A DNA stretch of 64,000 nucleotides from an uncultured Alphaproteobacteria bacterium (GCA_963791955.1 CAWBUO010000005.1:72467-136466); one strand, 5' to 3'. Counted from the stretch's first letter, positions 9,707-60,737 are shown. Program-made: numbers and translations. The notes: generated from the sequence alone by a model not told the origin.

Positions 9707-9769
9707 AACATCCTCCCTTTTTCTCATTTGCGAAAGCGACGAACGGTATACGGCAAGGCTCGACGGCGA

Positions 9770-38943: not shown

Positions 38944-39539
38944 AGTTGTTGCCAATGATTTGTCGGGGAAGTGTTGCATGAAGGCGATGGGCTAGACGCC
39001 CTTTGGCGAGGCAAACCTTTGCAGCTATGGGTTACTGACAATCCTGCCGGCGCTGGCGCAACGCTCGTTACTGTGCGCGTAACGGGGACCGACGTCTATT
39101 CTGTTCCATCAGGGATCGGGAGGTCTCGTATGCAGGCATCTGAGGGCTGAAGGATCTTTTCCACGCGCACTTCTCGCGATTGTGGCGGGGTTGGTCGCGT
39201 CGATTTGCAGACGCCGATAGTGCTTCGGTTGGCTTCGTGGATAGTCGGAAACGTGGGCGACGGCTACAAGCGTTGATTGCGTACCCCAGCGCTTCGACGA
39301 TACCCGGATTTATAGGCGGTATGAATTTTTGGTCGGTTGTAGTCCGCCCAATTCGCGAAAAATCGGCTTAATGGTGACGTTATTGCATTCCTTGGGACGA
39401 CAGCCCACTCCACTAATTTGCTCAGCCGACACAATCTTCGGGTTATGATTGTCTTTGGCCCCATGCATGGTTGAGACTACCAAGTCATAGGCCGACAGGT
39501 GGTTCGGACCAGATACAAGAAAGAACGGCGAGGCAACAG

Positions 39540-40931
39540 ATGGCAACAACGGTAATTCGTGCTTCTGCAATCTGGACAGGGGGGGCACACCCTAAAACAA
39601 TTTACGACCACGATCTGGTGATCGAGAACGGCGTGGTAGCCGGAGTGGTGCAAGATCACAAAGGTTCATACGACCATGAAGTGGACGCTTCAGGCTGCGT
39701 TGTAGTTCCAGGTCTGATCAATTGCCATACCCATGCTGGCTGTACACCCCACGCACGCGGGATTTCCGAAGATCTCACCATACATGAGGAAGGGGCATTT
39801 TATCACAGTCTAATTCCCTTGCTGGGGCTCGGATACACCGAACTCACTCACGAGGAATTCGCTGCGATCATGGAGTGGGACACACTCGCGATGTTAATGG
39901 GCGGCGCCACTACGGTTGTAGAAGAAAACTTTGGCGGTGCCGATATCTGGATGAATCTGGTCGAGAGGCTTGGCTTTCGATCGAACCTCGGTTTGACCTA
40001 TCCAGGCAACGTGGGTTCCATTGGCTACGTGAAGGAAGGAAGGATCGTCATCGACGAGCCGGGGAACGTCGAAGCCGGTTTAAAAGCTGGTCTTAAGCTT
40101 CACGACGAGCACCATGGCAAATTTGGCGACCGCTTGCGCATTCACCTGTCGCCACATGCGCCGGATACCGTTCCGGAAGACCTGTTGCGCGAGACCAAGA
40201 AACAGATCCAGCAACGCGGCATCACGGCCCATTTGCACCTTGCGCAACATCTGTCCGAAAATCGCACCATCGCTGAACGCCATGGCAATAAAACCTCAGT
40301 TGAGTATCTGGAGGACATTGGCTTTCTCGGCCCAGATATCCTTGCGACACACGTGTCTTACGTCACTGAGAGTGACATGGATATTATCGCACGTACGAAG
40401 ACCAATGTGATCCACGCATCATACCGCAAGGCGAAAGAAGGCCTGAATAGCCCATACTGGCAGTTCGTTGAGCGGGGCGCCAACGTAGCGCTAGCCACCG
40501 ACTCATTTTCTCATGATCTCATCGAAGATCTTCGTCTGGGGGCGCTTCTTGGAAAGATCAGTCAATCCAAAGTTGGTACGCCGAATGCCCAGCATCTTCT
40601 GACGAGTGCTACCCACGGCGCCGCGAAAGCCTTGGGCCGACCGGATCTTGGCAATCTGAACCCCGGTTCGCGAGGTGATGCGATTGCAATCGATATTTCC
40701 AATCCTTTCAATGCGCCGGTGTTCGATCCATTGCGCGCTCTCGTCTACTACTCAAACGGCCACGACGTCCGCCATTCGGTTGTCGACGGAACGCCGATCA
40801 TGATTGACCGCAAGATCCTTAACTCCGATGTTGCTGAAGTTGGAAAGGCGGCAGGAGTGGCCGCGCGACGCATTTGGCAAATGGGTGCCGAAAAGGGTGC
40901 GCTTCCTGAAGGTGTCCACTATCACCGCTAA
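39540..40931 (+). CDS. Amidohydrolase superfamily, ATZ/TRZ / aminohydrolase-chlorohydrolase type (copy 1)
   Basis: VVPGLINCHTHAG (HxH), HLHLAQH, ATHVSY and ALATDS metal-ligand regions. ATG 39540 gives the N-terminus MATTVIRASAIWTGG. Confidence 0.8.
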   Translation: MATTVIRASAIWTGGAHPKTIYDHDLVIENGVVAGVVQDHKGSYDHEVDASGCVVVPGLINCHTHAGCTPHARGISEDLTIHEEGAFYHSLIPLLGLGYTELTHEEFAAIMEWDTLAMLMGGATTVVEENFGGADIWMNLVERLGFRSNLGLTYPGNVGSIGYVKEGRIVIDEPGNVEAGLKAGLKLHDEHHGKFGDRLRIHLSPHAPDTVPEDLLRETKKQIQQRGITAHLHLAQHLSENRTIAERHGNKTSVEYLEDIGFLGPDILATHVSYVTESDMDIIARTKTNVIHASYRKAKEGLNSPYWQFVERGANVALATDSFSHDLIEDLRLGALLGKISQSKVGTPNAQHLLTSATHGAAKALGRPDLGNLNPGSRGDAIAIDISNPFNAPVFDPLRALVYYSNGHDVRHSVVDGTPIMIDRKILNSDVAEVGKAAGVAARRIWQMGAEKGALPEGVHYHR

Positions 40932-40977
40932 CAGAATGTTCTTCCAGTGTTGTTCTTCCGGCGCATTGGGGCCTTGA

Positions 40978-41955
40978 ATGCAAGGTGGAGTTGACCACAG
41001 TAGATTCGGCCTCGGACAGTTCGTTGAGCGATATGCTCTTATCGGCGTTTGGTTGATATTGATTGCAGTTTTCTCTTTTTTGCTGCCGGATACTTTTTTT
41101 ACCGGCCGCAATTTCAGGATAATCTTTGGATCTCAGACGATCCTACTGGTACTGACGCTAGGCTTGGTGATCGCTCTGGCTGTCTCTGAATACGATTTAT
41201 CGGTCGGAGCTGTTTTGTCGTTTGCCTTTCAAACGACAGTCATCCTCAACGTTGTGGTCGGCTTGCCGGTTGGTTGGGCGGTCCTGATCGTTGTGCTAGC
41301 GGCGGTTCTGGTCGGCGCCTTGAATGCGCTGATAATTGTCTTTTTTGGTGTACACTCCATCATCGCGACGTTGGCGAGTGCGACCTTGCTGACCGGTATT
41401 GTTCAGCTTATTAGCGACAATAAGATCATTACCGGCGTCTCGGGAAACCTATTGGCTGTAACCAACACCCGTCTACTCGGTCTGCCGCTTCTCTCGTATT
41501 ACGGCTTGGGTTTCTGTTTTTTCATCTGGTACGTCCTGCAGCATACCCCCGTTGGTCGTTATCTTTATTTTGTCGGTCAGGGAACGGAAGTGGCCAGGCT
41601 GGCGGGCGTGAATGTGAAAGCAGTGCGCGCCGGTGCCCTTATCGCCGCCGCCGTCGTGGCAGCGGTTGCCGGCATCCTGCTTGCCGGTGTCCGGGGCTCT
41701 TCAACGCCGGAGAATGGTGCAGCATGGTTGTTGCCAGCCTATGCCGCTGCTTTTCTGGGGGCTACCGCCATCGTGCCCGGCCGTTTTAATGCATGGGGTG
41801 CGTTCGTGGCTGTCTATTTTCTAGTGACGGGCTTCACCGGACTGCAACTGGCGGGATTATCAAGCTGGGTTCAGGATGTTTTTTACGGCGGTTCGCTTCT
41901 CATCGCCGTTACGTTGGCGCGCCTACCGAGGAGGCGTCGCCAACAATCCTCATGA
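40978..41955 (+). CDS. Sugar-type ABC transporter permease (RbsC/AraH family)
   Basis: Multi-pass hydrophobic protein with the BPD_transp_2 pattern ...GTEVARLAGVNVKAVR... Confidence 0.85.
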   Translation: MQGGVDHSRFGLGQFVERYALIGVWLILIAVFSFLLPDTFFTGRNFRIIFGSQTILLVLTLGLVIALAVSEYDLSVGAVLSFAFQTTVILNVVVGLPVGWAVLIVVLAAVLVGALNALIIVFFGVHSIIATLASATLLTGIVQLISDNKIITGVSGNLLAVTNTRLLGLPLLSYYGLGFCFFIWYVLQHTPVGRYLYFVGQGTEVARLAGVNVKAVRAGALIAAAVVAAVAGILLAGVRGSSTPENGAAWLLPAYAAAFLGATAIVPGRFNAWGAFVAVYFLVTGFTGLQLAGLSSWVQDVFYGGSLLIAVTLARLPRRRRQQSS

Positions 41956-41978
41956 GAGCAATAAGGGGAGTGTAAGAA

Positions 41979-43058
41979 ATGCTTGTTCGTAGTTCTTTCG
42001 GCGTTGCCGCGGCCGTGCTCTGCGGCACAATGATCGTGGCCGCACAGCCCGCGTCCGCGGATGTCTCGGAGGCTAAAAAGATTGTAGCGGAGGCGATGAA
42101 ACCCCCAGCGAGTTTCGTCGCACCCGGGCCGGCCTTCGATGCAAACAAAGTAGCCGGAAAGACCCTTTGGTACATTAGCTTTTCTGAACAGTCGCCAGTG
42201 ATGGCGACGTGGTCTGGCACGATGCAGCGCCTCGTCCTGAGTTACGGCGCCAAGGTCAATATCGTTGACGGCAAGAGCAATTTCTCCGAGTTTGGGCGCC
42301 TGATTGAGCAGGCGGTCGCAAATCGTGCGGACGCCATCGTCCTGATGGGAATTCCACCGCAAGCATTCGGCGTTCAGGTGCAGCAAGCTAAAGACGCCAA
42401 AATTCCGGTGATTGTTGGCTCAAATGGTGTAGCTGCGATTCCCGATATGAACGGTGTTGTCGCAGCAGTGACCATCGACCACGTTCAGGTTGGTAAGCTG
42501 CTTGGTGCTTGGGTCGTCGCCGATACCAATGGCAAGGGCCAAACTGCTGTCGTGACCCATGATGAGGTCATGGGGACAAAGACGATTGTTGATTCGATTA
42601 GCGGGGAGGTCGCGAGACTTTGTGGGTCTTCGTGCAGTGTGAAAGCCGAAAATCTGCCGTTTGCCAAAATCCAGACCGAGGGAGAAGTTACACAGTCTCT
42701 CGCTGCGAGGAATCCCGATCTTAAGTACATCATACCTGTCTATGACTTCGAGACGCTCACAATGGCACCGGCCCTACAGGCCGCCGGCGCTGCAGACCGC
42801 GTTTCATTGGCGTCTTTCAACGCCATTCCGGCGGTCATGCAGAAGGTTAAGAAGGGTGAGGTTGCGGCGGATGTCGGTGCGCCAAATGGCTGGTTCGGGT
42901 TTGCCATGGCGGACCAGGTGATGCGTGTGATGAGCGGCGCATCGCCCGTTCCAGACATTAAAGTGCCGCTGGGGCTTTTCACGCGGGAAAACATAGAAAG
43001 CATCGACCTTGGCGCAGGCGAAGAGTCTCTGGTACGGCAAAGTCGACTTCCCGGCTGA
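41979..43058 (+). CDS. Sugar-type ABC transporter substrate-binding protein (RbsB/Peripla_BP_4-like)
   Basis: Signal MLVRSSFGVAAAVLCGTMIVAAQPASA; ...ADAIVLMGIPPQAF...KIPVIVGSNG. Confidence 0.85.
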   Translation: MLVRSSFGVAAAVLCGTMIVAAQPASADVSEAKKIVAEAMKPPASFVAPGPAFDANKVAGKTLWYISFSEQSPVMATWSGTMQRLVLSYGAKVNIVDGKSNFSEFGRLIEQAVANRADAIVLMGIPPQAFGVQVQQAKDAKIPVIVGSNGVAAIPDMNGVVAAVTIDHVQVGKLLGAWVVADTNGKGQTAVVTHDEVMGTKTIVDSISGEVARLCGSSCSVKAENLPFAKIQTEGEVTQSLAARNPDLKYIIPVYDFETLTMAPALQAAGAADRVSLASFNAIPAVMQKVKKGEVAADVGAPNGWFGFAMADQVMRVMSGASPVPDIKVPLGLFTRENIESIDLGAGEESLVRQSRLPG

Positions 43059-43098
43059 GTATCGCAAACTTTGGGGCTCTCCTAAATCCTGAACAGAC

Positions 43099-44652
43099 GT
43101 GACCAATGATGTGACCAAGGCGGCGCTGTCGTTGCGCCGCCTCTCAAAATCGTTTGGCGGCGAACGAGCGCTGAAAGACACCGATTTCGCCGTCGGCATC
43201 GGCGAAATTCATGGCTTGGTCGGCCGGAATGGTTCGGGGAAATCAACGCTGATAAAAATTCTTTCGGGGTTCCACACTCCCGATCCCGGCGCCGAATGTC
43301 GGATTGACGGGCACGTAGTTACCCTTCCCCTGGATCCCGCCAGCGCACGCGCTTTGGGTCTAGTCTTCGTGCATCAGGATCTGGCTCTCGCGCCGGGGTG
43401 CACCGTTCTTGAGAACATGCGGATAGGGCGGTATTCGGCGCGCGGGCTTGGTAGAATTAACTGGCAGCGCGAACGCGAACGCGTTTCGCAAAGACTGCAA
43501 ACTGTCGGCCTTGATATCCATCCTGAAACTCCGGTCGAGCAACTGCGTCCGGTGGAGAGGGCGCAAGTTGCCATCGCGCGGGCGCTCGATGAGGTGGCAC
43601 ACCGTGAGCGGGGCATCCTCGTTCTCGATGAGCCCACGACGTTTTTGCCGCGAGACGATGTCGAAACCCTTTTCGACGCGGTTCGCCGGGTCGTGTCGCG
43701 CGGCTTCAGTGCAATCTTCGTCAGCCATCGGGTGGAAGAGATCAAGCAGTTGACTGACAGCGTAAGCGTCCTGCGTGACGGAGAGCGCGTCGCGACGCGA
43801 CGGACATCCGACATCTCTGAAAACGAATTGATCGAACTGATTCTTGGGCAGCCGCTTAGCGAGTTGTATCCGGCACGCTTGACCGTCGGGACCAACCAGG
43901 TGTTCTCCGTTGATAATTTGACTGGCGGCGGCATCCACAATCTTTCGTTGTCGATGCGTCAAGGCGAGATTGCCGGAGTTACCGGCATTGCGGGAATGGG
44001 ACACGACAGCCTTCCCTACCTGTTATTCGGGGCCGAACCAGCCTCAGGAGGGGAGTTGCAACAAGCTAACATGGCCCCGGAGGATCTGAGGTTTATGACG
44101 CCCAAAAAAGCCATTGCGCGCGGCATCGGTATGGTTCCGTCGGATCGGTTGCGCCGGGGCGGCATTCCTGCCTTCACCGTGCGTGAAAATGTCTCCCTGC
44201 CAGACATCTGGAGGTACTTCGCGACCGGTGTTCTACGCCAATCTCGCGAACGGCTGGATATCAATCGTTTGCTTCGCACTTTTTTGGTTCGACCGCCTGA
44301 AACGGAAATCCCTCTGGGCACACTGAGCGGCGGTAATCAACAAAAGGCACTTCTGGCAAAATGGCTTCAAATGAAACCGAAAGTGCTTCTGCTGCACGAT
44401 CCAACCCAAGGGATTGATGTCGGAGCCAAGAAAGAGATCTTTGTTCAGATCGAGAACGCCGCCGCCCGAGGGGCGGCTGTGCTGATAAGCAGCACCGAGT
44501 ACGAGGATCTTGCTCACCTCTGTCACCGCGTTCTGGTCTTCCGCGATGGCCAGGTATCAGCCGAACTACAGGGCACAACCCTTTCGGAAGAGTCGATCGC
44601 GGAAGCTTGTTACCGGCAGAGCTATGCAGCTCCGATTGGGTGCCGATCATAA
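43099..44652 (+). CDS. Sugar-type ABC transporter ATP-binding protein with two ABC domains (RbsA/MglA-like)
   Basis: GRNGSGKST, ILVLDEPT and a second-domain LSGGNQQK...LLLHDPTQGID; 517 aa. Confidence 0.9.
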   Translation: MTNDVTKAALSLRRLSKSFGGERALKDTDFAVGIGEIHGLVGRNGSGKSTLIKILSGFHTPDPGAECRIDGHVVTLPLDPASARALGLVFVHQDLALAPGCTVLENMRIGRYSARGLGRINWQRERERVSQRLQTVGLDIHPETPVEQLRPVERAQVAIARALDEVAHRERGILVLDEPTTFLPRDDVETLFDAVRRVVSRGFSAIFVSHRVEEIKQLTDSVSVLRDGERVATRRTSDISENELIELILGQPLSELYPARLTVGTNQVFSVDNLTGGGIHNLSLSMRQGEIAGVTGIAGMGHDSLPYLLFGAEPASGGELQQANMAPEDLRFMTPKKAIARGIGMVPSDRLRRGGIPAFTVRENVSLPDIWRYFATGVLRQSRERLDINRLLRTFLVRPPETEIPLGTLSGGNQQKALLAKWLQMKPKVLLLHDPTQGIDVGAKKEIFVQIENAAARGAAVLISSTEYEDLAHLCHRVLVFRDGQVSAELQGTTLSEESIAEACYRQSYAAPIGCRS

Positions 44653-46022
44653 AGGGGATTGGCTTCCTCGTACGCACGTGCGGCCCGCAGGACGAGGTCG
44701 TCGCGGTACATGGCGCCGACAATTTGAAGCCCGATTGGTCGTCCGTCGGCGGTGAAGCCGCAGGGAACACTAACGGCCGGCTGAAGCGTGAGGTTGAACG
44801 GATAAGAAAACGGAGTCCAGGCCGCAAAGTCGTCTTCTTCGACCTCGGGTGGCGCACGTCGGTTGGCCGGAAACGCCGGAACCGCGGTTGTGGGGAGCAA
44901 TAGAAGATCCCAACGCTCGTGAAAGAGTTGCATGGTTTGGCCCAAGGTAACACGCTTGTTCTGCGCGGTAAGGTAATCCATTAGCGATATGGAGCGCCCT
45001 TTGCGAACAAAATCGCCAAGCCCGGGATCGAGTAGTGCGAGTTTGTCGTCGGGCAAACCGCCAAGCGCATTCGCGACACCGACAAACCAGTGGGTGTTGA
45101 AAATTGGTGTCGTGTCGCCGATCCCAGGATCGGCAAGTTCAACATGGGCACCGAGAGTTTCAAAGATTTTAGCGGCCACATCAACCGCGTGTGCTACCTC
45201 CAGATTCAGCTTGGCAAATCCAAGATCTGGACAGTACGCGATCCTGAGTCCATTGACTGGTTCCTCGATTGCCGTGTGATAGTTGAAAGTGTTTGCGGGC
45301 AATGAAAGCCAATCGCGGGGATCGGGTTTGGTTATGACATTCATCATCAAAGCAAGATCGCTGACCCGCCGTGCTAAAGGCCCGGTAGTAGCGAGCGTTC
45401 CGATCGGGTTGGGTGGATAGGCCGGTACCCTGCCGAAAGTCGGCTTCAATCCGCAGAGGTTGGTGAAAGAAGCGGGATTGCGGATCGAACCACCGCCATC
45501 GGTGCAAAGCGCCAGTGTTCCCATGCCGGAAGCCAAGGCTGCAGCGGCGCCTCCGCTCGATCCGCCGGGTGTCAGTTCCGGGTTCCAGGGATTGCGCGTA
45601 ATGCCGGCAAGCGGACTGTCAGTCGCTCCCTTCCAGCCGAATTCGGCGGTGTTTGTCTTTCCGATGAGGACTGCGCCGGCCTCCCGCAGCCGTGCAACGC
45701 CCGGCGAATCCTCATTCCACGGTTGGTTGGGGTTGATAAGGCGGGAACCGCGTAAAGTTGGCCAACCCTTGGTTAGGAGCAAATCCTTGATTGACGTGGG
45801 CACCCCGTCGATCGGGCTTAGTGGCTTGCCGGCCCGCCACCGTTGTTCTGAGGCACGGGCATCCTCCCGAGCTGCATCGGCATCGACAAGACGGAAGGCA
45901 TTGAGCACTGCGTCATGTGCTTCGATCGCTCGCAGCGCCCCTTCGGTAGCTTCGACCGGCGAGAAAGTGCCAACGGCAAATCCCTGCGTGAGTTCAGCAA
46001 CAGATAGAAATTCGATGTTCAC
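44622..46022 (-). CDS. Amidase (amidase-signature family)
   Basis: GGSSGGAAAALASGMGTLALCTDGGGSIRNPASF. Confidence 0.9.
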   Translation of the reverse strand: MNIEFLSVAELTQGFAVGTFSPVEATEGALRAIEAHDAVLNAFRLVDADAAREDARASEQRWRAGKPLSPIDGVPTSIKDLLLTKGWPTLRGSRLINPNQPWNEDSPGVARLREAGAVLIGKTNTAEFGWKGATDSPLAGITRNPWNPELTPGGSSGGAAAALASGMGTLALCTDGGGSIRNPASFTNLCGLKPTFGRVPAYPPNPIGTLATTGPLARRVSDLALMMNVITKPDPRDWLSLPANTFNYHTAIEEPVNGLRIAYCPDLGFAKLNLEVAHAVDVAAKIFETLGAHVELADPGIGDTTPIFNTHWFVGVANALGGLPDDKLALLDPGLGDFVRKGRSISLMDYLTAQNKRVTLGQTMQLFHERWDLLLLPTTAVPAFPANRRAPPEVEEDDFAAWTPFSYPFNLTLQPAVSVPCGFTADGRPIGLQIVGAMYRDDLVLRAARAYEEANPLYDRHPIGAA

Positions 46023-46490
46023 AACTTTATCCTTGCGCCTGCTCTCTGCTGTTGCGCACAGTCTGCTGGTGTTTCAACTTGGTAAGAAGTTGATCTTACT
46101 AAGCGAATACTAGTCCTGTCCGCCCGCGGGTCGGACGTGCGAGACTGCCGCGGCCGGTATTGACTGATCTTTTGTATATCTGCCTTTGTCGTAGCGGCTA
46201 CGATCTGCCGGATGAGTAGTTAAGAGTCTTCAAAAGGTTTTGGACCGAAGACATCGTTTCGGACCACGGCCGGACGTGACAGTGAGCTAATTCGGGCGGA
46301 GCGAACTGTAAACTGCGTTCGTACGTCGTGATTGACTGTGTTGCGGCTGCTCCGAACATTGACCCCTTTCGGCGTCCAACCGTGACAACAGTCGGAGTCA
46401 CATCTCCGACGACGGTTCAGATGCTCGAGGACGTGAGGAGGTCAAACTTGTGCGCCGATTGGGGGGCAAACGGCGCGCCGATTTACACCA

Positions 46491-47570
46491 TCAGCGCGGC
46501 TCGCGGGCAACGATCATTTTTGGATCAACAAGCTTGCCCTTTTCAATCACGACCTGATTGTCGAGCGTGACTGAACAATCACGGAGCGGCACATCGTAAT
46601 GTCCGCGCGTCGATCGCTTGCCGCCACCTTGCGTGTTCGGTCCGGTCGAGAATAAAAAATTCCCCGGAAAGACGCGCGCTGCAGCCCGATTCCGCTCTGG
46701 GTCATCGCCGTTGAGAGCCATCCCGTACCACCGGGCCTGAGGATTTATTCCCCACCCCAAGTGGGAGATGGCGTAAGGGTCCTGATCGCCGTCGCTGTTT
46801 TTTCCGTCTTCGAGCCAATCGCGCATGAGCTTGGCGTCGAGGCCGCCATCGATATTGACGATATGGCCCTCACGCACTTCAAGCGTCACGCGGTCGGTCA
46901 CATAACGGCAGTAGGGGAGAATGATGATATCCCCGGGAGCAAACACGACCCTGCCATTGGCGCTGCCTTCATTAGGGAAGGTGTGGATGTGGCCGGCGCC
47001 CCAGTGATCGAAATGCCCCTTTTCGTCCGCAAAACCCCATTGGGTCATCACTGGATATTCGCCACACTCATAGCTGAGGTCGGTGCCGGCTTCGCTTGTC
47101 ACTCGAACTTTTCGCGTTCGCCCATAAATACCCTCGGCATACTTCATCGCGTCCTTAAGTCCTTTTGGCGATAGAAGCTGGTCGAGATCATCCGGAGCGT
47201 CGATGATCATAAGTACGCGTGTGCCGCCATCCATCACTTCCTTGAGCCATTTGGTGAACAGCGGTACGTGGAAAATGACAATCAGGTCTGCTTCCTTTAC
47301 GGCTGCAAGCGTGCCTTTGCACTGGCCGATCGTAGGAACTCCGACCTTAGTCCATCCAGGAATGGAGTTTACGCACATTTCATAGATGTCGGCTCCAAGC
47401 TCGTCGGCCGCACCGAACGCGGACTGAATGTACTCCCGCCGCGTGCCGAGGTCGCTCACGATTGCGATAGTCTCGCCGCGTTGCACCTTCGACATTTCGA
47501 ATTGCTTCCGATAGAGCGAGGTAAGGCGTCCCGGATTGAGCTCCTGAACCCGTATCGATGAGTGCTGCAT
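46491..47570 (-). CDS. nicX: NicX-like 2,5-dihydroxypyridine 5,6-dioxygenase (M29 aminopeptidase-fold), paralog 1
   Basis: PYAISHLGWGI and GNFLFSTGPNTQGGGKRSTRGHYDVPLRDC. As I recall it, P. putida NicX has GISHIGWGL and GNFLFSTGPNTEVGGKRKTPCHLDIPLRNC. Confidence 0.75.
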   Translation of the reverse strand: MQHSSIRVQELNPGRLTSLYRKQFEMSKVQRGETIAIVSDLGTRREYIQSAFGAADELGADIYEMCVNSIPGWTKVGVPTIGQCKGTLAAVKEADLIVIFHVPLFTKWLKEVMDGGTRVLMIIDAPDDLDQLLSPKGLKDAMKYAEGIYGRTRKVRVTSEAGTDLSYECGEYPVMTQWGFADEKGHFDHWGAGHIHTFPNEGSANGRVVFAPGDIIILPYCRYVTDRVTLEVREGHIVNIDGGLDAKLMRDWLEDGKNSDGDQDPYAISHLGWGINPQARWYGMALNGDDPERNRAAARVFPGNFLFSTGPNTQGGGKRSTRGHYDVPLRDCSVTLDNQVVIEKGKLVDPKMIVAREPR

Positions 47571-47706
47571 GACCCTAGGCTCTCAGCGGTTTGAGTGATA
47601 TGCCAATAATGAATAAGGCTCGGGTTTGAAAGTCAAGAGTTCTCGTTGCGACCAAAACTTGAGCGGCGCCGGTCTTGTGCGACCGCCATAATTGACAGGT
47701 TTCGTC

Positions 47707-48510
47707 ATGTTTCCCGAAGACTATCCGCTGCAAGAGCCCTTCTCGGATCAAGCTCGGCTATATCACGCCGAGGTCATGCGGCGCGGTGCTTCGATTATTG
47801 GTGAGGAACTGCGGTATGGATCCGACCCCTACCAAAGCATGTGCGTTTTTCGTGCGGCCCAGCCAAATGGCGGGGTGTTGGCATTCTTTCACGGGGGCGG
47901 TTGGACCAACGGCTATAAAGAGTGGATGGCGTTCATTGCGCCGTGTTTGACCAACGCTGGAATTACCTTTGCGACGGTTGGTTATCGTCTTGCTCCCGGT
48001 CATCTCTTTCCATCGGGCTTTGACGATGCTTGCGCAGGTGTGGGTCGGCTCGCCGACAGCGCGGCGCAGCTCGCCGGCGGTCAACACCGTCTGTTTGTCG
48101 GGGGCCACTCAGCCGGCGGTCATTATGCGGCGCTCATGGCGCTGACTCAGCCAACTTTGAATATTCGAGGATGTCTTCCGATATCCGGTGTCTACGATTT
48201 CGGGCCGCAATCCGGGCTGTCTACCCGCCCGCGCTTCCTTGGCGCGCCGGAACTCAAGCACGAGGTTGCTGCTAGTCCGATTGAGCATGTTGGTGAAAAT
48301 CCTTGTCCGTTCCTGATCGCCTACGGCAGCGAGGATTTTCCACACCTTATGCGGCAAGCGGAGCGTTTCGCTGACAAACTTGCGGCCGCCGGCGGTGATG
48401 TCCAACGTCTCGTCCTTAATGGCTGTAACCACTTCACCGCCAGCTACGCGGCGGGCGACCCGGACGGTCCGTGGGCATCAAAGGCGATCGAGTGGATCAA
48501 GCAGCATTAA
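47707..48510 (+). CDS. Alpha/beta hydrolase (Abhydrolase_3 / arylformamidase-esterase type)
   Basis: FFHGGGWTNG oxyanion motif and nucleophile elbow GHSAGGH. ATG 47707 is preferred over TTG 47692. Confidence 0.75.
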   Translation: MFPEDYPLQEPFSDQARLYHAEVMRRGASIIGEELRYGSDPYQSMCVFRAAQPNGGVLAFFHGGGWTNGYKEWMAFIAPCLTNAGITFATVGYRLAPGHLFPSGFDDACAGVGRLADSAAQLAGGQHRLFVGGHSAGGHYAALMALTQPTLNIRGCLPISGVYDFGPQSGLSTRPRFLGAPELKHEVAASPIEHVGENPCPFLIAYGSEDFPHLMRQAERFADKLAAAGGDVQRLVLNGCNHFTASYAAGDPDGPWASKAIEWIKQH

Positions 48511-48546
48511 AACTACCGACGATGTGGACACCACGCTAACTGAGGT

Positions 48547-49275
48547 TTAGCAGCTCGGACCCAGCTCGCGCGTGCCGGGATAATATGTTCTTGCGAAGGC
48601 CGGCCGTTGTTGCAAGCGCGCGAACCAATCGATGACATGAGGCAAATCGGCCCAGAGATGGGTTAGATCGAGATCCTGCATCCTCACCACACTCGGCATG
48701 ATGCTTATGTCGGCGAGCGTGAACATGTCGTTGGCAAGCCACTGTGTTTGGCTAAGCGATCGCTCCATTCTCTCAAGCGTTTGTCGCAGCCGATCTAGCG
48801 CCGCGTCGATCTCGTCTTTTGAAAACCCGGTTCGCCCCATCTTCAGATAGAAGTGCTTTCGTAAGGGAAGCCGCTCCACGTAAGCGCGGAATTGCTCGTC
48901 TGTCATACCGGACCAGATAGGTACGAAGAACGAATTGAAAGACGGGTACCGGATCGATGTTGTCGGTACCTCGTCAATGTACTGGCGCCATGCCCGCATG
49001 TGCGCGAGTTCGACTGGATTGATCGGACGCAGCGGATGCTCTGGGAAAACATCGTCTATGTATTCGTTGATCACCGACGAATCGCCGATCACGTTGCCGT
49101 TGTGAACTAACGTGGGCACGACACCGTTCGGATTGAGTTTGAGGTACCAATCGGAGAGATGATCGTTTCGGGCGAAGAAGATAATGCGGTCCGTCCAGGG
49201 TAGGTCTTTTTCGATCAGCGCCATACGCACTTTTTGACTGCACGTTGAAACCGGTGAGTTATAAAGTTCGATCAT
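48547..49275 (-). CDS. Glutathione S-transferase family protein
   Basis: MIELYNSPVSTCSQKVRMAL...NPNGVVPTLVHNGNVIGDSSVINEYI (thioredoxin-like GSH site); last gene of the hydroxylase operon. Confidence 0.8.
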   Translation of the reverse strand: MIELYNSPVSTCSQKVRMALIEKDLPWTDRIIFFARNDHLSDWYLKLNPNGVVPTLVHNGNVIGDSSVINEYIDDVFPEHPLRPINPVELAHMRAWRQYIDEVPTTSIRYPSFNSFFVPIWSGMTDEQFRAYVERLPLRKHFYLKMGRTGFSKDEIDAALDRLRQTLERMERSLSQTQWLANDMFTLADISIMPSVVRMQDLDLTHLWADLPHVIDWFARLQQRPAFARTYYPGTRELGPSC

Positions 49276-49337
49276 GGCCTGCGCTGTAACGGGTGTTGAG
49301 TGCAAACGCGCGTTTAGATTACGCGTGTCGCCTACAT

Positions 49338-51656
49338 TCAGCTCATAGGAGCCTTCGGCTGGCCGGTTTCCAGCATCGCGGTAAGGATCCGCTCAGGTGT
49401 CAGCGGCAGCCGGCGCAATCTGATTCCGGTGGCAGCGGTAACGCCGTTAGCGATAGCGGGAGCAACCGAGCAGATTGGGATCTCACCAATTCCCTTGGCA
49501 CCGAACGGACCGTCCGGTTCCGGATCTTCTATCAATAGCGGATGGATCTGATGCGGAACGTCGAGGGTCGTCGCGATCTTGTAGTCCATCAGGCTAGGAT
49601 TGGCGATCCGGGGGCCGTCCCACACCATTTCTTCAAACAACGCGAATCCCAATCCTTGGACAAAGCCGCCCTGAATTTGACCTTCGACCGACATCGGATT
49701 AATGGCCTTGCCGACATCACAAGCCGACCATGCTTCCAGCACCGTGGTCTTGCCGGTTGCTTCGTCGATTTCCACGTCGCAAACAACCGTATTGAATGAG
49801 AAAACGCCGATCTGCGGGAACGGTAGGCCGCTGGCAATCGTACGTTTCGGATCGATTGTCGGCTTGTTGTAGATGAGGCTTTCCGCGCCGATGATCGGCC
49901 CGCCGGCGGCCCAGTGTGCGCGGAGGGAAACATCCTGAAACGTGAGTTCCTTTTGCGGTATGCCGACTATACCGACGCGCCCGCCTTGGCGTAATTCCAG
50001 ATCAGCAACGCCACATTCCAGCATATCGGCAGCATGTTCTTTGATTTTGTGCGCGACCTCGTTGGCCGCGCCGACAACCGCACGCCCGGTCATGTAGGTG
50101 ACGCGACTTGCGGTCGTGCCCCAGTTGAACGGTGAGCCATCGGTGTCAGGGCTTGCGAGCGCAACATTGGCGACCGGAATTTGGAGCGCCTCGGCGCAAA
50201 TCTGCGGCAGCACCGTATCCGAGCCCTGACCGATATCAACGGCACCGGTATTGAGCACGACCGTGCCGTCCTCCAGCAGGCGGATGATTGCGCCAGTCGC
50301 GAGTAGTCCGCAGATATGCGCCGTTGAGGCAACGCCAAGCGCGCGCCGTCGACCCGGAGCGACCGTCAGGCTTTGGCGTTCATCCCAACGTGAGGCGCGA
50401 CGGGCGCTGTGCAGGGATTTGATGAATCCGTCGGAATGGATCGCGCCGCCGCCGACCCATTGGTCGCCAGCGCGCACGGCGTTTTTCTCCCGGAGGTCAA
50501 TTGGATCAATGCCAAGCCTTGCCGCGATCTCGTCGATTTGGACCTCGGTCGCAAAGGTCACCTGCGGATTGCCGAAACCGCGGAAAGCGCCGAAGCGAAG
50601 CTTGTTGGTGTAAAAAAGCCGTCCCAATGACCGGAAATTGGCGATACGGTACGGTCCGCGCGCCATCCATAGGGAAAAGCCCATAACGCCGGGGCTATCG
50701 TCCCCGTATGCACCGCAATCGATGACCGCCTCAACCTCGCGGGCAACTAGCGTGCCGTCCCTGAGCGCACCGGTCTTGGCGCGAATTTTATAGGGGTGTC
50801 TCAGGCGTACGAGCTCGAAGTCCTCTTCGCGGCTAAGCACCATTTTAACTGGTTTGCCGGTCGCGAGGGCGAGCGCTGCGGCCATGCCTTGAACGTGCAT
50901 TTCCATCTTGTTGCCGAAGCCGCCGCCAACCCGCGGCGTGACGCAACGCACCCTAGACATCGGCAAGCCGAGCGCGTCACAAACATTTGCCTGAACCCGA
51001 AACACCGACTGGTTTGCCGACCAGATCGTAACCCGACCGGCAGCATCGATCTCTGCCAAAGCCCCACACGGCTCGATGGCTACATGGGCTTGCGCCTGGG
51101 TCTCAAATTCGTTTTCCACGATGACGTCACAGGTTGCCCAAGCGGCATCCACGTCTCCCTCAGAAAATCGGCATTCCCACGCCAGGTTGCCGCCACACTC
51201 GGTTTCAAAAATGCGGAAGTTCTTAGTGTTGTCGTCGTGGACTAGGGGCGCGCCGGGAGCCATCGCTTCCTCTGGGCTGAGTACGGCGGAGAGCTCCTCG
51301 TAGGTCACATCTATGAGCTGCGCGGCACGCCGCGCCGTCGCTTCATCTTCAGCCGCCACTAGACATACGGCTTCGCCAACGAAACGCACCTTCTGTTTGG
51401 CGAGAACGCATTCGTCCTTGATGAAGGGGCCAAATTTCCCATTTGCGACATCGTTTCCTGTGAGAACGCAGGCGACGCCTGGAACCGCAAGTGCAGCCGA
51501 GATGTCGTATGACAAGATCCGGGCGTGCGCATAGGGGCTTTTGAGGATGGCTCCGTGCAGCATTCCAGGTCGGTAAATGTCGGCGATGTAAGTCGCACGC
51601 CCGCTGGTTTTCTCAGCGGCGTCAAGACGCGGGAGATTTCGCCCGACCTCTTTCAT
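49338..51656 (-). CDS. Xanthine dehydrogenase-family molybdopterin-binding large subunit
   Basis: 772 aa with the GAFRGFGNPQ motif (XDH type). The CODH-type AYRCSFR and AYRGAGR motifs are absent. Confidence 0.9.
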   Translation of the reverse strand: MKEVGRNLPRLDAAEKTSGRATYIADIYRPGMLHGAILKSPYAHARILSYDISAALAVPGVACVLTGNDVANGKFGPFIKDECVLAKQKVRFVGEAVCLVAAEDEATARRAAQLIDVTYEELSAVLSPEEAMAPGAPLVHDDNTKNFRIFETECGGNLAWECRFSEGDVDAAWATCDVIVENEFETQAQAHVAIEPCGALAEIDAAGRVTIWSANQSVFRVQANVCDALGLPMSRVRCVTPRVGGGFGNKMEMHVQGMAAALALATGKPVKMVLSREEDFELVRLRHPYKIRAKTGALRDGTLVAREVEAVIDCGAYGDDSPGVMGFSLWMARGPYRIANFRSLGRLFYTNKLRFGAFRGFGNPQVTFATEVQIDEIAARLGIDPIDLREKNAVRAGDQWVGGGAIHSDGFIKSLHSARRASRWDERQSLTVAPGRRRALGVASTAHICGLLATGAIIRLLEDGTVVLNTGAVDIGQGSDTVLPQICAEALQIPVANVALASPDTDGSPFNWGTTASRVTYMTGRAVVGAANEVAHKIKEHAADMLECGVADLELRQGGRVGIVGIPQKELTFQDVSLRAHWAAGGPIIGAESLIYNKPTIDPKRTIASGLPFPQIGVFSFNTVVCDVEIDEATGKTTVLEAWSACDVGKAINPMSVEGQIQGGFVQGLGFALFEEMVWDGPRIANPSLMDYKIATTLDVPHQIHPLLIEDPEPDGPFGAKGIGEIPICSVAPAIANGVTAATGIRLRRLPLTPERILTAMLETGQPKAPMS

Positions 51657-52129
51657 TGGGCGACCTCACCGCCAGCGCGACAGACTGCTTCAACAATTTT
51701 GATGTAGCCTGAGCAGCGGCACAGGTTTCCGGATAGAGCTGCCCTTGCCTCATCGGCACTCGGATGCGGATTTTGGCGCAGTAGCGAGTGTGCGGAAACA
51801 AGTACTCCCGAGGTGCAAAAGCCACACTGCACTGCGCCATTCTCGGTCAGAGCCTGCTGCAGGGGAGCGAGTTCGCGGGTCTGAGCCAAACCTTCAACCG
51901 TCGTGATCGGCCGATCCACCAGGTTCACCGCTAGCGACAGGCAGCTGCGGACAGGCTGGTCGGCCACAAGAACTGTACACGCCCCGCAAACGCCCTGGTT
52001 GCAGCCCCGCTTCGCGCCGGTTAAGGCAAGCTCATCACGTAAAACGGTGAGTAGTGTCGTGGTTGGCATCGCACGGACACTGCGTCGGCGGCCATTGATG
52101 GTGAGATTCACAAGTTGTTCGCCGTTCAC
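51653..52129 (-). CDS. (2Fe-2S)-binding small subunit of the molybdenum hydroxylase
   Basis: CNQGVCGACTV and CGFCTSG...CRCSGY clusters; 4-nt overlaps on both sides. Confidence 0.9.
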   Translation of the reverse strand: MNGEQLVNLTINGRRRSVRAMPTTTLLTVLRDELALTGAKRGCNQGVCGACTVLVADQPVRSCLSLAVNLVDRPITTVEGLAQTRELAPLQQALTENGAVQCGFCTSGVLVSAHSLLRQNPHPSADEARAALSGNLCRCSGYIKIVEAVCRAGGEVAQ

Positions 52130-52983
52130 GGCTCGTCTCCGATAGCGGCCCGAGCGCGCCGGATGGTCTTTGCAAGCAGCCGGGGAATGACTCGCCGCCG
52201 GTAGTCGGCGCTGGCACGAACATCATCGACTGGATCGCATGCCGCCGCCAGGATGTCGCCAGCCGCTTCGATTGCCGCATCTTCGAGACGACTGCCTTCA
52301 AGTAATTTTTCGGCTTCGCTCCGCCGCACCGGACCCGGGGCACATGCCCCAATCGCCACGCGCGCGACACGGCATACGTCATGTTCCATCGCCAAAATCA
52401 CCGCGACCGAAACGACAGCGAAATCGCCTGCTGTGCGTTCGAGTTTTTCAAACACACCGACGGTTCCTTCGGGCGCAGGAGGAACCACGACACGGATAAT
52501 AATATCAGCAGGAGCCAGCACGGTCGTGTACCAGTCGACGATCAGCTCGTTGATCGGCACAGTTCGGGGACCGCTTGCTGAAGCCACCTCGATTGCCGCA
52601 TCGATCGCCGCCAGAGCCGGCAAATAATCCGCTGCTGGATCGGCGAAGGCGAGAGAGCCGCCGATTGTTCCCATATTGCGGACCGGTACATTGGCGATCT
52701 TTACCGCGGCCGCGGGCAACACTCTTTGGCCGCTGCGAAAGACTCTCGAGCGCGATGTTTCAACATGACGGGTCATTGCGCCGATCTGCACGGATCCATC
52801 AGGCGAAACCGTTATTCCGGTAAGGTCGTGGAGGTCAGCGAGACTGACCAGGCCAGACGGCTCTACTAAGCCCGCGTTCATCATAGCAACAAGTGTCGCG
52901 CCACCCGCTAGGCAGCGCGCGCCATCATGTTGAGTGAGAAACGACACGGCTTCGGCAACACTTGTTGGTCGGTAAAAATCCAT
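52126..52983 (-). CDS. FAD-binding medium subunit of the molybdenum hydroxylase (CoxM-like)
   Basis: MDFYRPTSVAEAVSFL...RCLAGGATLVAMMNAGL (FAD_binding_5 pattern). Confidence 0.85.
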   Translation of the reverse strand: MDFYRPTSVAEAVSFLTQHDGARCLAGGATLVAMMNAGLVEPSGLVSLADLHDLTGITVSPDGSVQIGAMTRHVETSRSRVFRSGQRVLPAAAVKIANVPVRNMGTIGGSLAFADPAADYLPALAAIDAAIEVASASGPRTVPINELIVDWYTTVLAPADIIIRVVVPPAPEGTVGVFEKLERTAGDFAVVSVAVILAMEHDVCRVARVAIGACAPGPVRRSEAEKLLEGSRLEDAAIEAAGDILAAACDPVDDVRASADYRRRVIPRLLAKTIRRARAAIGDEP

Positions 52984-52989
52984 CGGCGT

Positions 52990-53451
52990 TCACGTTACGG
53001 GGGAAGGAGCTTCGACGCGCGCCTTGAATGCCGCGGCGAAATCGCGACCCAGACTTTCAGCCTTTTTCTTCATCACGCCGAGGCCAAATTTCCCGAGCCG
53101 ACCGACGACCGAAACCTCGGAAGCATAACTGACTTCTGTTTCGTTCGGACTTCGCTCTACGAGGCGCAAGATATTCTCGGCCGAGATCGAGCTGGCACGG
53201 CTGCCTTCTTCCCCACGCGTGCGCGACCGCAATTCTTCGGGTGGCTTCTGCGCAGTCAGTTCTACGTCGACGTTAAAGTCCGCTTTGATGACCCCCAATT
53301 GCACCCGGACCTTGGCCTTGTAAAGCGTCGGGCTCGATACTGTGACGCCCTGGCATCCCGGGACACAAGGCGCGACAACGGCTGGATCGATTATTGCAGC
53401 CCAGACTCGCTCGCGCGGCGCGGCGACGATGAATCGGTCCTCAATGCGCAT
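52990..53451 (-). CDS. CoxG-like SRPBCC protein (putative fourth hydroxylase component)
   Basis: MRIEDRFIVAAPRERVWAAIIDPAVVAPCVPGCQGV...VVGRLGKFGLGVMKKKAESL. Confidence 0.8.
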   Translation of the reverse strand: MRIEDRFIVAAPRERVWAAIIDPAVVAPCVPGCQGVTVSSPTLYKAKVRVQLGVIKADFNVDVELTAQKPPEELRSRTRGEEGSRASSISAENILRLVERSPNETEVSYASEVSVVGRLGKFGLGVMKKKAESLGRDFAAAFKARVEAPSPVT

Positions 53452-53461
53452 GGTTAGGCCC

Positions 53462-54544
53462 TTACCGAGCCTGGCGCGGGACTATCATCGCGGGATCCGT
53501 TAGGCGGCCCGCTGCGATGATCGTTTTGCCGTCAAGTTCGACGGTACAGCCGCGCATCGGTACGTCATAATGGCCACGAGTCGAACGATTGCCGCCTCCT
53601 TGAGTGTTCGGACCAGTGGAAAAAAGGAAGTTGCCCGGGAATACCCGGGCCGCGGCCCGATTGCGCTCAGGCTGGTCGCCATGCAAACCCATCCAATACC
53701 AGCGAGCCTGAGGATTCATGCCCCAGCCGAGATGAGACAGCGCGTACGGATCGCGGTCATCTTCGCTGGCTTTTCCATCTTCGAGCCACTCGCGCATCAG
53801 ATTGGCATCGAGACCGCCATCGAGATCGACAATGTGCCCGTCGCGAATTTTGAGTCGGATCGGATCGGTAACGTAGCGGCAATAGGGGAGAATGATCATG
53901 TCCCCGGGGGAGATCGTGACTGTCCCCTGTGCCGAGCCTTCATTCGGGAAAGTGTGAATGTGACCGGCACCCCAAAGGTCGAAATGGCCAGGTTCGTCTG
54001 CGTAGCCCCACTGCGTCATAACTGGATATTCGCCGCACTCATACGCCAAATCCGTGCCGTCAGAACGAGTGACACGCACGCGGCGTGTTTTGCGATAAAG
54101 CGACTCAGCGTACTTCATAGCCTCCTTCAAGCCGGGCGGCGACATCAGTTCCTCAAGATCATCGGGCGCATCATGGACCATCAGCACACGCGTGCCGCTC
54201 TCCATCACCTTCTTCAGCCACGATGTGAAAAGCGGAATGTGGAAGATCAGCACCATGTCGGCCGCACAGAGTGCTTCAAGCGTTCCTTTGCAGCGGCCAA
54301 TTGTCGGAACACCCACCTTCGTCCAGGAGGGGGTCGTGCTCACTGTCATTTCATAAATATCCGCGCCAAGTTCGTTTGCCGCGACGAAGGCTGCTTCAAC
54401 GTATTCCTGCCTCGTTGCGAGATCGCTTACGACCGCGATCGTCTCACCCTTCGTCACTCGGCAGAGCTCGAGTTGTTGTCGAAACAATCCTGGCAACTGA
54501 GCAGGATTAAGTTCTTGGGGCCGCCGTGCCGCTTCGACGCGCAT
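53462..54544 (-). CDS. nicX: NicX-like 2,5-dihydroxypyridine 5,6-dioxygenase, paralog 2 (first gene of the hydroxylase operon)
   Basis: PYALSHLGWGM and GNFLFSTGPNTQGGGNRSTRGHYDVPMRGC. Long identical runs with paralog 1 (GADIYEM, TKVGVPTIG, ECGEYPVMTQWG, WGAGHIHTFPNEGSA). Start MRVEAARRPQELNP aligns with the paralog 1 N-terminus. Confidence 0.75.
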   Translation of the reverse strand: MRVEAARRPQELNPAQLPGLFRQQLELCRVTKGETIAVVSDLATRQEYVEAAFVAANELGADIYEMTVSTTPSWTKVGVPTIGRCKGTLEALCAADMVLIFHIPLFTSWLKKVMESGTRVLMVHDAPDDLEELMSPPGLKEAMKYAESLYRKTRRVRVTRSDGTDLAYECGEYPVMTQWGYADEPGHFDLWGAGHIHTFPNEGSAQGTVTISPGDMIILPYCRYVTDPIRLKIRDGHIVDLDGGLDANLMREWLEDGKASEDDRDPYALSHLGWGMNPQARWYWMGLHGDQPERNRAAARVFPGNFLFSTGPNTQGGGNRSTRGHYDVPMRGCTVELDGKTIIAAGRLTDPAMIVPRQAR

Positions 54545-54599
54545 AGCCGAAATCCTTTCCACGCAAGATACTTCAATGTACAAATCGCTCGGAACGGGT

Positions 54600-54631
54600 G
54601 TCAATAGCGAGGGTCACTCTCTTTTTGATTT
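54600..54631 (+). promoter_or_regulatory. Operator-like motif, copy 1 (nicX2 / tetR divergent intergenic region)
   Basis: GTCAATAGCGAGGGTCACTCTCTTTTTGATTT is 30/32 identical to 60738-60769. It contains the imperfect dyad TCAA..GAGGGT-N-ACTCTC..TTGA. Confidence 0.45.
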
Positions 54632-54642
54632 GGCGGAAAGGA

Positions 54643-55269
54643 ATGGGAGGCGTGGTACAGGTCAAGAAAGCTGAGGTCCGAGACGCTATTCTCAAAAGCG
54701 CGTTTCGGCTGTTCAAGCGCAAAGGTTACATCAATACGACGACCGCGCAGATCGCCGCGGGCGCGAAGGTTTCCGAGTTTAACCTTTACATTTATTTTGG
54801 CTCAAAGTTCGAGATTTTGTTCGCGATTTGCGATCCGTGGATGCGCCAGCGTGTTCAACGTCTTGAGGATCGGCTGGGGGCAGAGACCGACCCCAGGCGG
54901 CGGTTGCAAATCATTCTCGCCACGCTGTGGCGAGAAATGCCGACCGATGACAATGGTTTTCCCAACAGCCTCATGCAAGCGCTCGCGACTACGGCCCGCC
55001 GCGAGGGCTACCGACCTGACTTGCTGCGTTGGATCGAAGAACGTGTCGAAGCCTTGATTTTGGAGTCTCTGCCCGTGTCGAGACGACGGCAGCTCGCTCG
55101 GGGGGGGCTCGCCCATCTTCTGATGATGGCGCAGGACGGCTTCGTTCTTAACCACCATCTGAATCCGGATAGCATCTGCCCGGACGCCACAGTCGACCTT
55201 GTCTGCGACCTTCTGCTCGGCAATCACGTGCAGGGGCAACTGAGTCCCAAAAGCGCTTCCATGGTTTGA
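54643..55269 (+). CDS. TetR/AcrR family transcriptional regulator (divergent from the nicX2 operon)
   Basis: RDAILKSAFRLFKRKGYINTTTAQIAAGAKVSEFNLYIYFGSKFEIL. Confidence 0.8.
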   Translation: MGGVVQVKKAEVRDAILKSAFRLFKRKGYINTTTAQIAAGAKVSEFNLYIYFGSKFEILFAICDPWMRQRVQRLEDRLGAETDPRRRLQIILATLWREMPTDDNGFPNSLMQALATTARREGYRPDLLRWIEERVEALILESLPVSRRRQLARGGLAHLLMMAQDGFVLNHHLNPDSICPDATVDLVCDLLLGNHVQGQLSPKSASMV

Positions 55270-55303
55270 CAGCAATCAGTTGCCGTCACGCTAAGCTCTT
55301 TGA

Positions 55304-56047: not shown

Positions 56048-56060
56048 CTTTCTTGGCCCC

Positions 56061-57486: not shown

Positions 57487-57489
57487 CGG

Positions 57490-59276: not shown

Positions 59277-59451
59277 GCGCGGATGGCCTCCATGCCGGGC
59301 GTTGCGGTGTGGTACAACATGCAAGCGGTCCAATTTGAAACCCCATGCTCGGATCAGCATGAGATGCAAAGTGTTCAACGAGCCGCACGACAAACGCGGC
59401 CTAACAGCTCGCGTACGTTAAAGTAGTAACTCTACCGAGAGGAGGTGTAGG

Positions 59452-60636: not shown

Positions 60637-60737
60637 CGGTAAGCTCCTCCTCGGTTGACTATTCACTCTTCCGGTGCCTTAGTTCTGCTCAGCGCGTGAG
60701 TGGCCTCTAATAACTCTACTAATCGCATTTGTTCAAT

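Follow-up and report, generated by a model that had tools for sequence, protein, structure and literature searches.

The locus described here lies in a 64,000-nucleotide (nt) stretch of DNA from an uncultured alphaproteobacterium (CAWBUO010000005.1:72467-136466, hereafter the window). The window is part of a soil metagenome-assembled contig, whose genome comprises 5.56 Mb in 14 contigs and is 97% complete; among public sequencing runs, the stretch is present in soil and wetland DNA metagenomes only. It carries two homologues of the 2,5-dihydroxypyridine dioxygenase NicX (NicX1 and NicX2) and a molybdenum (Mo) hydroxylase, together with an amidase-signature amidase, a serine hydrolase of the Abhydrolase_3 family and a glutathione S-transferase (GST) (Table 1). 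In the canonical pathway, NicD converts N-formylmaleamate to formate and maleamate, NicF is the maleamate amidohydrolase and NicE the maleate cis-trans isomerase. A sequence-only reading of the window had suggested that the Abhydrolase_3 protein, the amidase and the GST may substitute for NicD, NicF and NicE, respectively. We somewhat favour a different account, in which the locus consists of two separately inherited blocks, the second of which would link the Mo hydroxylase, a divergent clade of NicX (clade II) and deformylation by the Abhydrolase_3 protein, with the amidase outside the route.

The open reading frames (ORFs) of the amidase, the Abhydrolase_3 protein and the GST are intact at the coordinates first assigned to them, with catalytic motifs present, and the GST start is supported by its homologues, all of which are 242 aa long. 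For comparison, a search with NicX1 retrieved 80 related loci from Alpha- and Betaproteobacteria (69-90% identity). The TetR-family regulator adjoins NicX in 50 of these 80, and the LIV-type ATP-binding cassette (ABC) transporter is kept alongside the operon in relatives. Beyond the genes listed in Table 1, a second TRZ/ATZ-type amidohydrolase (504 aa, 61143-62657, plus strand) is flanked by the LIV transporter on one side and by further ABC ATPase genes on the other, and has no conserved counterpart in the related loci.

Table 1. Genes and junction between 39 and 61 kb of the 64,000-nt window
Feature	Position (nt)	Strand	Remarks	Basis
TRZ/ATZ-family amidohydrolase (Amidohydro_1)	39471-40931	+	Block I	Pfam
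ABC permease	40978-41955	+	Block I	Pfam
Peripla_BP_4 binding protein	41979-43058	+	Block I	Pfam
Two-domain ABC ATPase	43099-44652	+	Block I	Pfam
Amidase-signature amidase, 466 aa	44622-46022	-	Block I; convergent to and overlapping the ATPase	PF01425, NF004815
Junction of Blocks I and II	46042-46489		No DNA similarity to relatives of either block	blastn
NicX1, divergent (clade II) 2,5-dihydroxypyridine-dioxygenase homologue	46491-47570	-		PDB 7cn3, E 1.6e-67
Abhydrolase_3 serine hydrolase	47707-48510	+	Divergent from NicX1	PF07859, PF20434; HGGGW, GHSAG
LigF-like GST	48547-49275	-	3'-most gene of the hydroxylase operon	Pfam GST_N, GST_C
Mo large subunit of hydroxylase	49338-51656	-		Pfam
2Fe-2S subunit of hydroxylase	51653-52129	-		Pfam
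FAD subunit of hydroxylase	52126-52983	-		Pfam
CoxG/SRPBCC subunit of hydroxylase	52990-53451	-		PF06240
NicX2, NicX1 paralogue	53462-54544	-	Opens the hydroxylase operon	PDB 7cn3 match
TetR-family regulator	54598-55269	+	Divergent; longest ORF (orthologues 194-204 aa)	Pfam
Short-chain dehydrogenase/reductase (SDR) oxidoreductase	55304-56218	-	Longest ORF (orthologues 246 aa)	Pfam
LIV-type ABC transporter	56061-60666	-	Five genes	Pfam
LIV transporter ATPases	56061-56780, 56758-57486	-		Pfam
LIV transporter permeases	57490-58386, 58383-59393	-		Pfam
LIV transporter Peripla_BP_6 binding protein	59452-60666	-		Pfam

Two gene blocks and the place of the amidase

Comparison by blastn divides the region at the junction between the amidase and NicX1. 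Positions 39540-46041 are colinear with locus L120 at 80% nt identity, and positions 46490-58281 are colinear with locus L127 at 87-89%; from 46490 onward, the window is also colinear with L130 and L129. The intervening segment (46042-46489) matches no relative, and no promoter-like or terminator-like site was scored in it. Over 44400-49500, a scan scored two weak terminator-like sites, both intragenic, and not a single promoter-like site. In L127, the nearest relative of the second block, a transposase follows NicX1 where the window has the amidase. L127 is itself a decaying copy of the cluster (~90% identical to 46490-58281): its NicX2 is broken into three ORFs, and an insertion sequence block (rve, IS66-type) at the position of window 48321-48329 cuts short the hydrolase.

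The amidase matches PF01425 with an E value of 1.6e-93 and scores 640 bits against NF004815, above the cut-off of 506, and its Ser-cisSer-Lys triad motifs (SIKD, GGSSGG and GGSIR) are present. Its metagenomic orthologues (86, 86, 73, 72 and 69% identity) are all accompanied by an ABC transporter and an Amidohydro_1 gene; the exact layout of 39471-46022 is found in three of the five, and none has NicX alongside. The transporter gene order of Block I is repeated at 60-88% identity in L120, L123 and L124. The TRZ/ATZ amidohydrolase, whose NCBIfam chlorohydrolase and deaminase matches are all below cut-off, is 81-83% identical in L120 and L123, where it lies next to the amidase orthologue. Among the 80 related loci, no amidase of at least 40% identity was found within 9 kb of NicX, and weaker matches (28-37%) occur in three; among 120 same-family genomes, the highest identity is 55%, and the match is never near NicX. 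An amidase downstream of a Variovorax operon was considered as an orthologue and ruled out, being an indoleacetamide-hydrolase equivalog.

Because of the contexts of its close orthologues and the break in DNA synteny between it and NicX1, we conclude that the amidase belongs to a separate module and borders NicX1 by chance. Its proposed use as a substitute for NicF is contradicted by the same evidence: its orthologues sit with the amidohydrolase and ABC transporter, never with NicX. The 4.65 kb from the amidase to the GST (44622-49275) would span the seam of two blocks inherited apart. Block I (39471-46022), with a sugar-type ABC transporter, would be complete in itself and act on a different amide or amino compound, and Block II (46491-60666) would be a TetR-controlled N-heterocycle cluster. 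For genome mining, the case carries a caution: the neighbour of a pathway gene can belong to another module, which only the context of close orthologues revealed here.

These findings bear directly on the full model of the sequence-only reading, in which the Abhydrolase_3 protein, the amidase and the GST replace NicD, NicF and NicE and take 2,5-dihydroxypyridine to fumarate. With the amidase in a different conserved block, a synteny break before NicX1, few and weak amidase matches near NicX in the related loci and a transposase in the amidase's place in L127, this model appears very unlikely. The GST adds to the difficulty: it fails the maiA model, is nearest to LigF and has ~70% identical homologues in hydantoinase or other operons (see below). 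The model does have points in its favour, namely the intact catalytic motifs of all three candidates, the position of the amidase after NicX1 on the same strand across a gap free of scored terminator-like sites, the membership of the GST in the operon and a 97%-complete genome in which canonical nicD, nicE and nicF were not found. There is also a precedent in biuret, which is hydrolysed by two unrelated folds, the amidase-signature enzyme AtzE and the isochorismatase-fold cysteine hydrolase BiuH (PMC5806882).

The Abhydrolase_3 protein and the search for canonical nic genes

The four-component hydroxylase of Block II has separate CoxG/SRPBCC, FAD, 2Fe-2S and Mo subunits encoded in one operon, and this order is kept in related loci; in a plasmid search, the best homologue of its Mo large subunit was 38.6% identical. 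The usual gene order in the related loci is TetR, then NicX-CoxG-FAD-FeS-Mo-Abhydrolase_3-LIV ABC transporter. Of the 46 loci in which each NicX flank extends for 8 kb or more, 32 carry an Abhydrolase_3 gene (at least 45% identity) no further than 9 kb from NicX. It stands immediately behind the Mo large subunit in 32 of the 33 loci that have both. Where that hydroxylase orthologue is missing (13 loci), the gene is 10-770 bp from NicX in 12 cases and 4.8 kb away in the 13th. Altogether, 44 of the 46 loci bearing the hydrolase have it linked either to NicX or to the hydroxylase. Since it stays with the ring-cleavage enzyme in two distinct operon architectures, the simplest view is that it acts on the cleavage product, and on the basis of this gene linkage the protein is likely a non-orthologous replacement of NicD. 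A second operon architecture around clade II NicX is seen at L019:16036-19693 (similar in L014 and L047), where NicX-TetR-Abhydrolase_3 is accompanied by a sugar-type ABC transporter, a cupin and a CoxL-like Mo subunit. The cupin is gentisate-1,2-dioxygenase-like (227 bits, below cut-off), and the operon contains two ring-cleavage-type enzymes.

The hydrolase, whose orthologues are 267 aa long, has an HGGGW oxyanion loop, a GHSAG nucleophile elbow and the catalytic Asp and His. It belongs to PF07859 and PF20434 and not to the Abhydrolase_1/6 type of NicD, to which BLASTP finds no significant similarity (E 0.05). An analogy to kynurenine formamidase lies in the shared HGGxW and GHSxG motifs. 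Protein atlas look-ups of the hydrolase and the GST returned family names alone, and literature searches yielded neither an Abhydrolase_3 deformylase nor an amidase-signature maleamate amidase. Esterase and N-formylmaleamate deformylase activities are documented together in one alpha/beta hydrolase with a Ser-His-Asp triad (PMC13230308). Among the three proposed stand-ins, the hydrolase in place of NicD has good support from conserved gene order; the amidase belongs to another module, and the GST is at most a candidate for the place of NicE. A second, distant Abhydrolase_3/BD-FAE paralogue, 28-33% identical to the window's hydrolase, is found directly after the GST or after NicX in two relatives (L130:9682-10569 and L129:6904-7721); it could represent a further hydrolytic step with no counterpart in the window.

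To search for the canonical genes, we used NicD, NicE, NicF, NicC and NicX from two textbook nic clusters, those of Pseudomonas sp. BYT-5 plasmid pBYT5-1 and an Azospirillum oryzae plasmid. In these, NicD is of the Abhydrolase_1/6 type (PF00561, PF12697), NicE an Amdase and NicF an Isochorismatase. The NicD, NicE and NicF queries gave zero matches in the window, and the window's contig has no match to PF00857 or PF17645, in agreement with the earlier observation that the NicF and NicE folds are missing from the window. Extended to the whole genome, a check that the sequence-only reading had called for, the search returned no convincing orthologue of any of the three, an outcome in favour of that reading. 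Genome-wide NicD matches are at most 27% identical over full length. The best NicE matches are 25-27% identical and have no second catalytic Cys; the genome has only two PF17645 proteins, which share 25% identity with NicE, and the Amdase-family pair on contig C14 was ruled out as maleate isomerases for want of that Cys.

NicF-like proteins are more numerous, with four full-length paralogues 36-46% identical to NicF. Two of them (C1:302.7k and C9:56.7k) were excluded as NicF orthologues by their context and their better match to N-carbamoylsarcosine amidase: these two best paralogues score 224-236 bits against that enzyme (26st) versus 133-157 bits against NicF (3uao), and they adjoin hydantoinase A/B or luciferase-type genes. 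The other two (C1:287.8k and C2:422.8k) were set aside on low identity alone (36-40%). A possible hidden nic cluster at C6:802-804k, with a NicC-like gene and an adjacent isochorismatase, was also rejected, its isochorismatase being unlike NicF and the nearby hydrolase unlike NicD. With 23 isochorismatase-family genes and several hydantoinase A/B pairs, the genome is unusually rich in amide and N-heterocycle hydrolases.

The related loci show the same pattern. Among the 80, there are no NicE matches, NicF-like genes occur only in L067 (33-37%), and NicD-like matches are only partial (25-34%). Most related operons have no amide hydrolase or isomerase gene, and we conclude that neither in the window nor in most relatives does Block II encode a dedicated amide hydrolase or maleate isomerase. 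Five other operon-bearing genomes were also searched: a canonical nicX/E/F set is present elsewhere in two of them and missing from the other three.

One could suppose that maleamate is formed and then finished by unlinked promiscuous enzymes (isochorismatases resembling N-carbamoylsarcosine amidase for the amide and, for maleate, a hydratase or some different route), the GST only guarding against reactive oxidation products of the diol. The supply of isochorismatases, including the four paralogues closest to NicF, would suit this, as would the PDB matches that place NicF and the N-carbamoylsarcosine amidase subfamily in one clade and the fact that most related operons have no GST at all. However, the NicF-like paralogues sit in hydantoinase or luciferase-type clusters, which suggests other substrates, and the genome has no maleate isomerase bearing both catalytic cysteines; we consider such an ending of the pathway quite improbable.

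The GST and clade II NicX

The GST is a genuine member of one operon subtype. Its closest orthologues (93, 84 and 83% identity) each end a TetR-controlled operon of the order (NicX)-CoxG-FAD-FeS-Mo and are followed by NicX and an Abhydrolase_3 gene in three differing local arrangements. These GST-bearing operons were found in metagenome contigs, the closest relatives of the window. The SDR is kept only in this subtype, at 70-91% identity in L127, L128 and L130. Most operons of the wider NicX clade have no GST, and in species-representative genomes the GST looks unlinked to NicX.

The GST does not belong to the zeta or maleylpyruvate-isomerase type. The maiA model (TIGR01262) gives 62.9 bits against a cut-off of 171.05, and the match covers residues 14-109 only; a zeta GST (1e6b) aligns with an E value of 3.5e-10 over the N-terminal part only. 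The best solved relative is the beta-etherase LigF (PDB 4xt0), with an E value of 4e-27 over the full length. GST homologues of ~70% identity occur in other settings, one next to a cyclase and a fumarylacetoacetase-type hydrolase of Hydrogenophaga and others leading hydantoinase operons. The former lies on the chromosome of Hydrogenophaga sp. BPS33 (L133:7920-11881), where the gene order behind a TRAP transporter is SGL-GST (70%)-cyclase (PF04199)-fumarylacetoacetase. A NicX-family gene lies 9 kb away. The GST and fumarylacetoacetase of that locus are possibly the glutathione-dependent isomerase/hydrolase pair of another ring-cleavage route.

The conserved place of the GST at the end of its operon subtype makes some part in the pathway likely. 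It could act as an isomerase, which is chemically reasonable. In its strongest form, the idea is that clade II NicX, the Abhydrolase_3 protein and the Mo hydroxylase constitute an undescribed, widespread route that dispenses with NicF and NicE, the GST, in the present subtype, using glutathione to isomerise the cleavage product (N-formylmaleamate or maleamate) to the fumaryl form. We hold this form of the idea to be improbable; if true, pyridine catabolism would gain its first glutathione-dependent step, and the GST would be the first isomerase outside the zeta and NagL GSTs.

NicX1 and NicX2 are 71% identical to each other, and each matches PDB 7cn3 with an E value of ~1e-66. The clade II proteins are only ~35% identical to canonical NicX, from which they differ by an 8-residue deletion and a 4-residue insertion. 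The Fe(II) ligands His265, Ser302, His318 and Asp320 are invariant in NicX1, NicX2 and 11 relatives, as is Leu104, and NicX orthologues carry PF26233. In the genome of L112, a canonical-like NicX and a clade II NicX lie 3 kb apart. The window's own genome encodes, at another site (C1:373000-392999, at 9743-10804 of that segment, minus strand), a third NicX of clade II (NicX3, 62% identical to NicX1). Its cluster includes a large Mo subunit, a cupin, an ABC transporter, an FMO-type monooxygenase, an Abhydrolase_1 protein, an SDR, a dihydroxy-acid dehydratase and an unrelated GST. Genomes of the same genus share the NicX3 copy and not the window's cluster.

A candidate route and its relation to known systems

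In the account we favour, the Mo hydroxylase (CoxG, FAD, FeS and Mo subunits) would form a 2,5-dihydroxypyridine-type ring. The divergent NicX paralogues, to judge by their kept Fe ligands, would open this ring between C5 and C6 to give an N-formyl amide. The Abhydrolase_3 protein, given its near-invariant gene linkage, would then remove the formyl group, doing the job of NicD from an unrelated branch of the alpha/beta hydrolases. The LigF-like GST would contribute a glutathione-dependent step, for which cis-trans isomerisation and protection against a reactive diol or aza-quinone are candidates.

Several observations weigh against this account. Phe105 and Gln177 (H105F and E177Q relative to canonical NicX) are clade-wide, and Gln308 (E308Q) is found in all but one sequence. 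His189, which hydrogen-bonds the substrate in Pseudomonas putida NicX, is replaced by Leu in NicX2 and its 84% identical orthologue (L130:3710-4792, 360 aa), and is His in all NicX1-type sequences; NicX1 and NicX2 may, on these residues, differ in substrate. The P. putida variants E177A and H189A retain 2.7% and 6.9% activity, respectively (PMC7910607). As substrate-contact residues are altered in clade II, the NicX product is possibly not N-formylmaleamate. The closest solved relatives of the hydrolase are lipases and esterases, with no formamidase in the best 60 of a PDB sequence search, and its linkage to NicX would also fit an action before ring cleavage, such as de-esterifying an imported compound. 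The GST-bearing relatives are fairly close (70-95% protein identity), and shared inheritance explains part of the conservation. Finally, the amidase adjoins NicX1 on the same strand, which could permit its opportunistic use.

The altered residues lead to an alternative in which clade II NicX acts on a related, substituted dihydroxy-N-heterocycle supplied by the Mo hydroxylase. The hydrolysed product would then not be maleamate, and equivalents of NicF and NicE would be needless. This would fit the low identity to canonical NicX, with its three fixed substrate-site changes, deletion and insertion, and also the near-absence of NicE-, NicF- and NicD-like genes from the related loci and the three of five carrier genomes without canonical nicE and nicF. 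The pair of canonical-like and clade II enzymes in L112 likewise suggests different jobs. Nevertheless, Gln177 retains the capacity to form hydrogen bonds with the pyridone N-H and C=O, P. putida NicX carrying H105F remains active (PMC7910607), and no tool result points to an alternative substrate. Moreover, in having a CoxG/SRPBCC subunit of its own, the hydroxylase is built like the 3-hydroxypyridine dehydrogenase HpdA of Ensifer adhaerens HP1, whose four components (HpdA1-A4) yield 2,5-dihydroxypyridine (bioRxiv 10.1101/2020.01.08.898148). We rate the alternative as rather unlikely, although a serious contender.

Vitamins, alkaloids, pesticides and industrial chemicals contain pyridine rings, whose breakdown is annotated almost wholly by analogy with nicX-D-F-E. 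Clade II NicX is common in soil- and sponge-associated Alpha- and Betaproteobacteria, where it is steadily paired with an unrelated hydrolase. An amide hydrolase or an isomerase usually does not accompany this separate clade. A widespread route is therefore overlooked or misinterpreted by current annotation. Cultured carriers make it bench-testable: Variovorax sp. YR216 and Sphag1AA, Bradyrhizobium sp. dw_411 and Falsiroseomonas oryzae MO-31.

Among known systems, the GST is comparable to LigF of Sphingobium sp. SYK-6 (4xt0), with which it shares a two-domain cytosolic GST fold, and its N-terminal Ser-rich motif resembles that of Ser-type GSTs; the lignin-ether context of LigF is, however, absent around it. 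It differs from the glutathione-dependent isomerases of the zeta class and NagL in that it falls below the maiA/maleylacetoacetate-isomerase cut-off and matches in the N-terminal domain alone. For the amidase, AtzE and BiuH illustrate an exchange between amidase-signature and isochorismatase folds in the lower pathways of N-heterocycles, which is the type of swap first proposed. The likeness is chemical only, as the window's amidase-signature gene is not pathway-linked in any relative.

The canonical nicX-nicD-nicF-nicE cluster of the Pseudomonas putida KT2440 type shares with the window a NicX-family Fe(II) dioxygenase with four metal ligands, an upstream Mo hydroxylase and a Ser-His-Asp hydrolase gene tightly linked to NicX. 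By contrast, the window's NicX is ~35% identical, with H105, E177 and E308 changed, and its hydrolase is of PF07859 instead of Abhydrolase_1/6. The window's cluster and genome have no isochorismatase-fold NicF or two-cysteine NicE, and the cluster has no NicC monooxygenase. The 3hpd cluster of strain HP1 was found by BLAST with canonical maleamate-pathway genes (bioRxiv 10.1101/2020.01.08.898148). It comprises hpdBCDE beside HpdA1-A4 and differs from the window's cluster in its canonical lower-pathway genes (deformylase, amidase and isomerase) and in its regulator, which is of the GntR instead of the TetR family. As in the window, a Mo hydroxylase with a separate SRPBCC/CoxG subunit lies beside a 2,5-dihydroxypyridine-dioxygenase homologue and an ABC transporter, and the 3hpd cluster would offer the best functional analogy for the upper step of the route proposed here.

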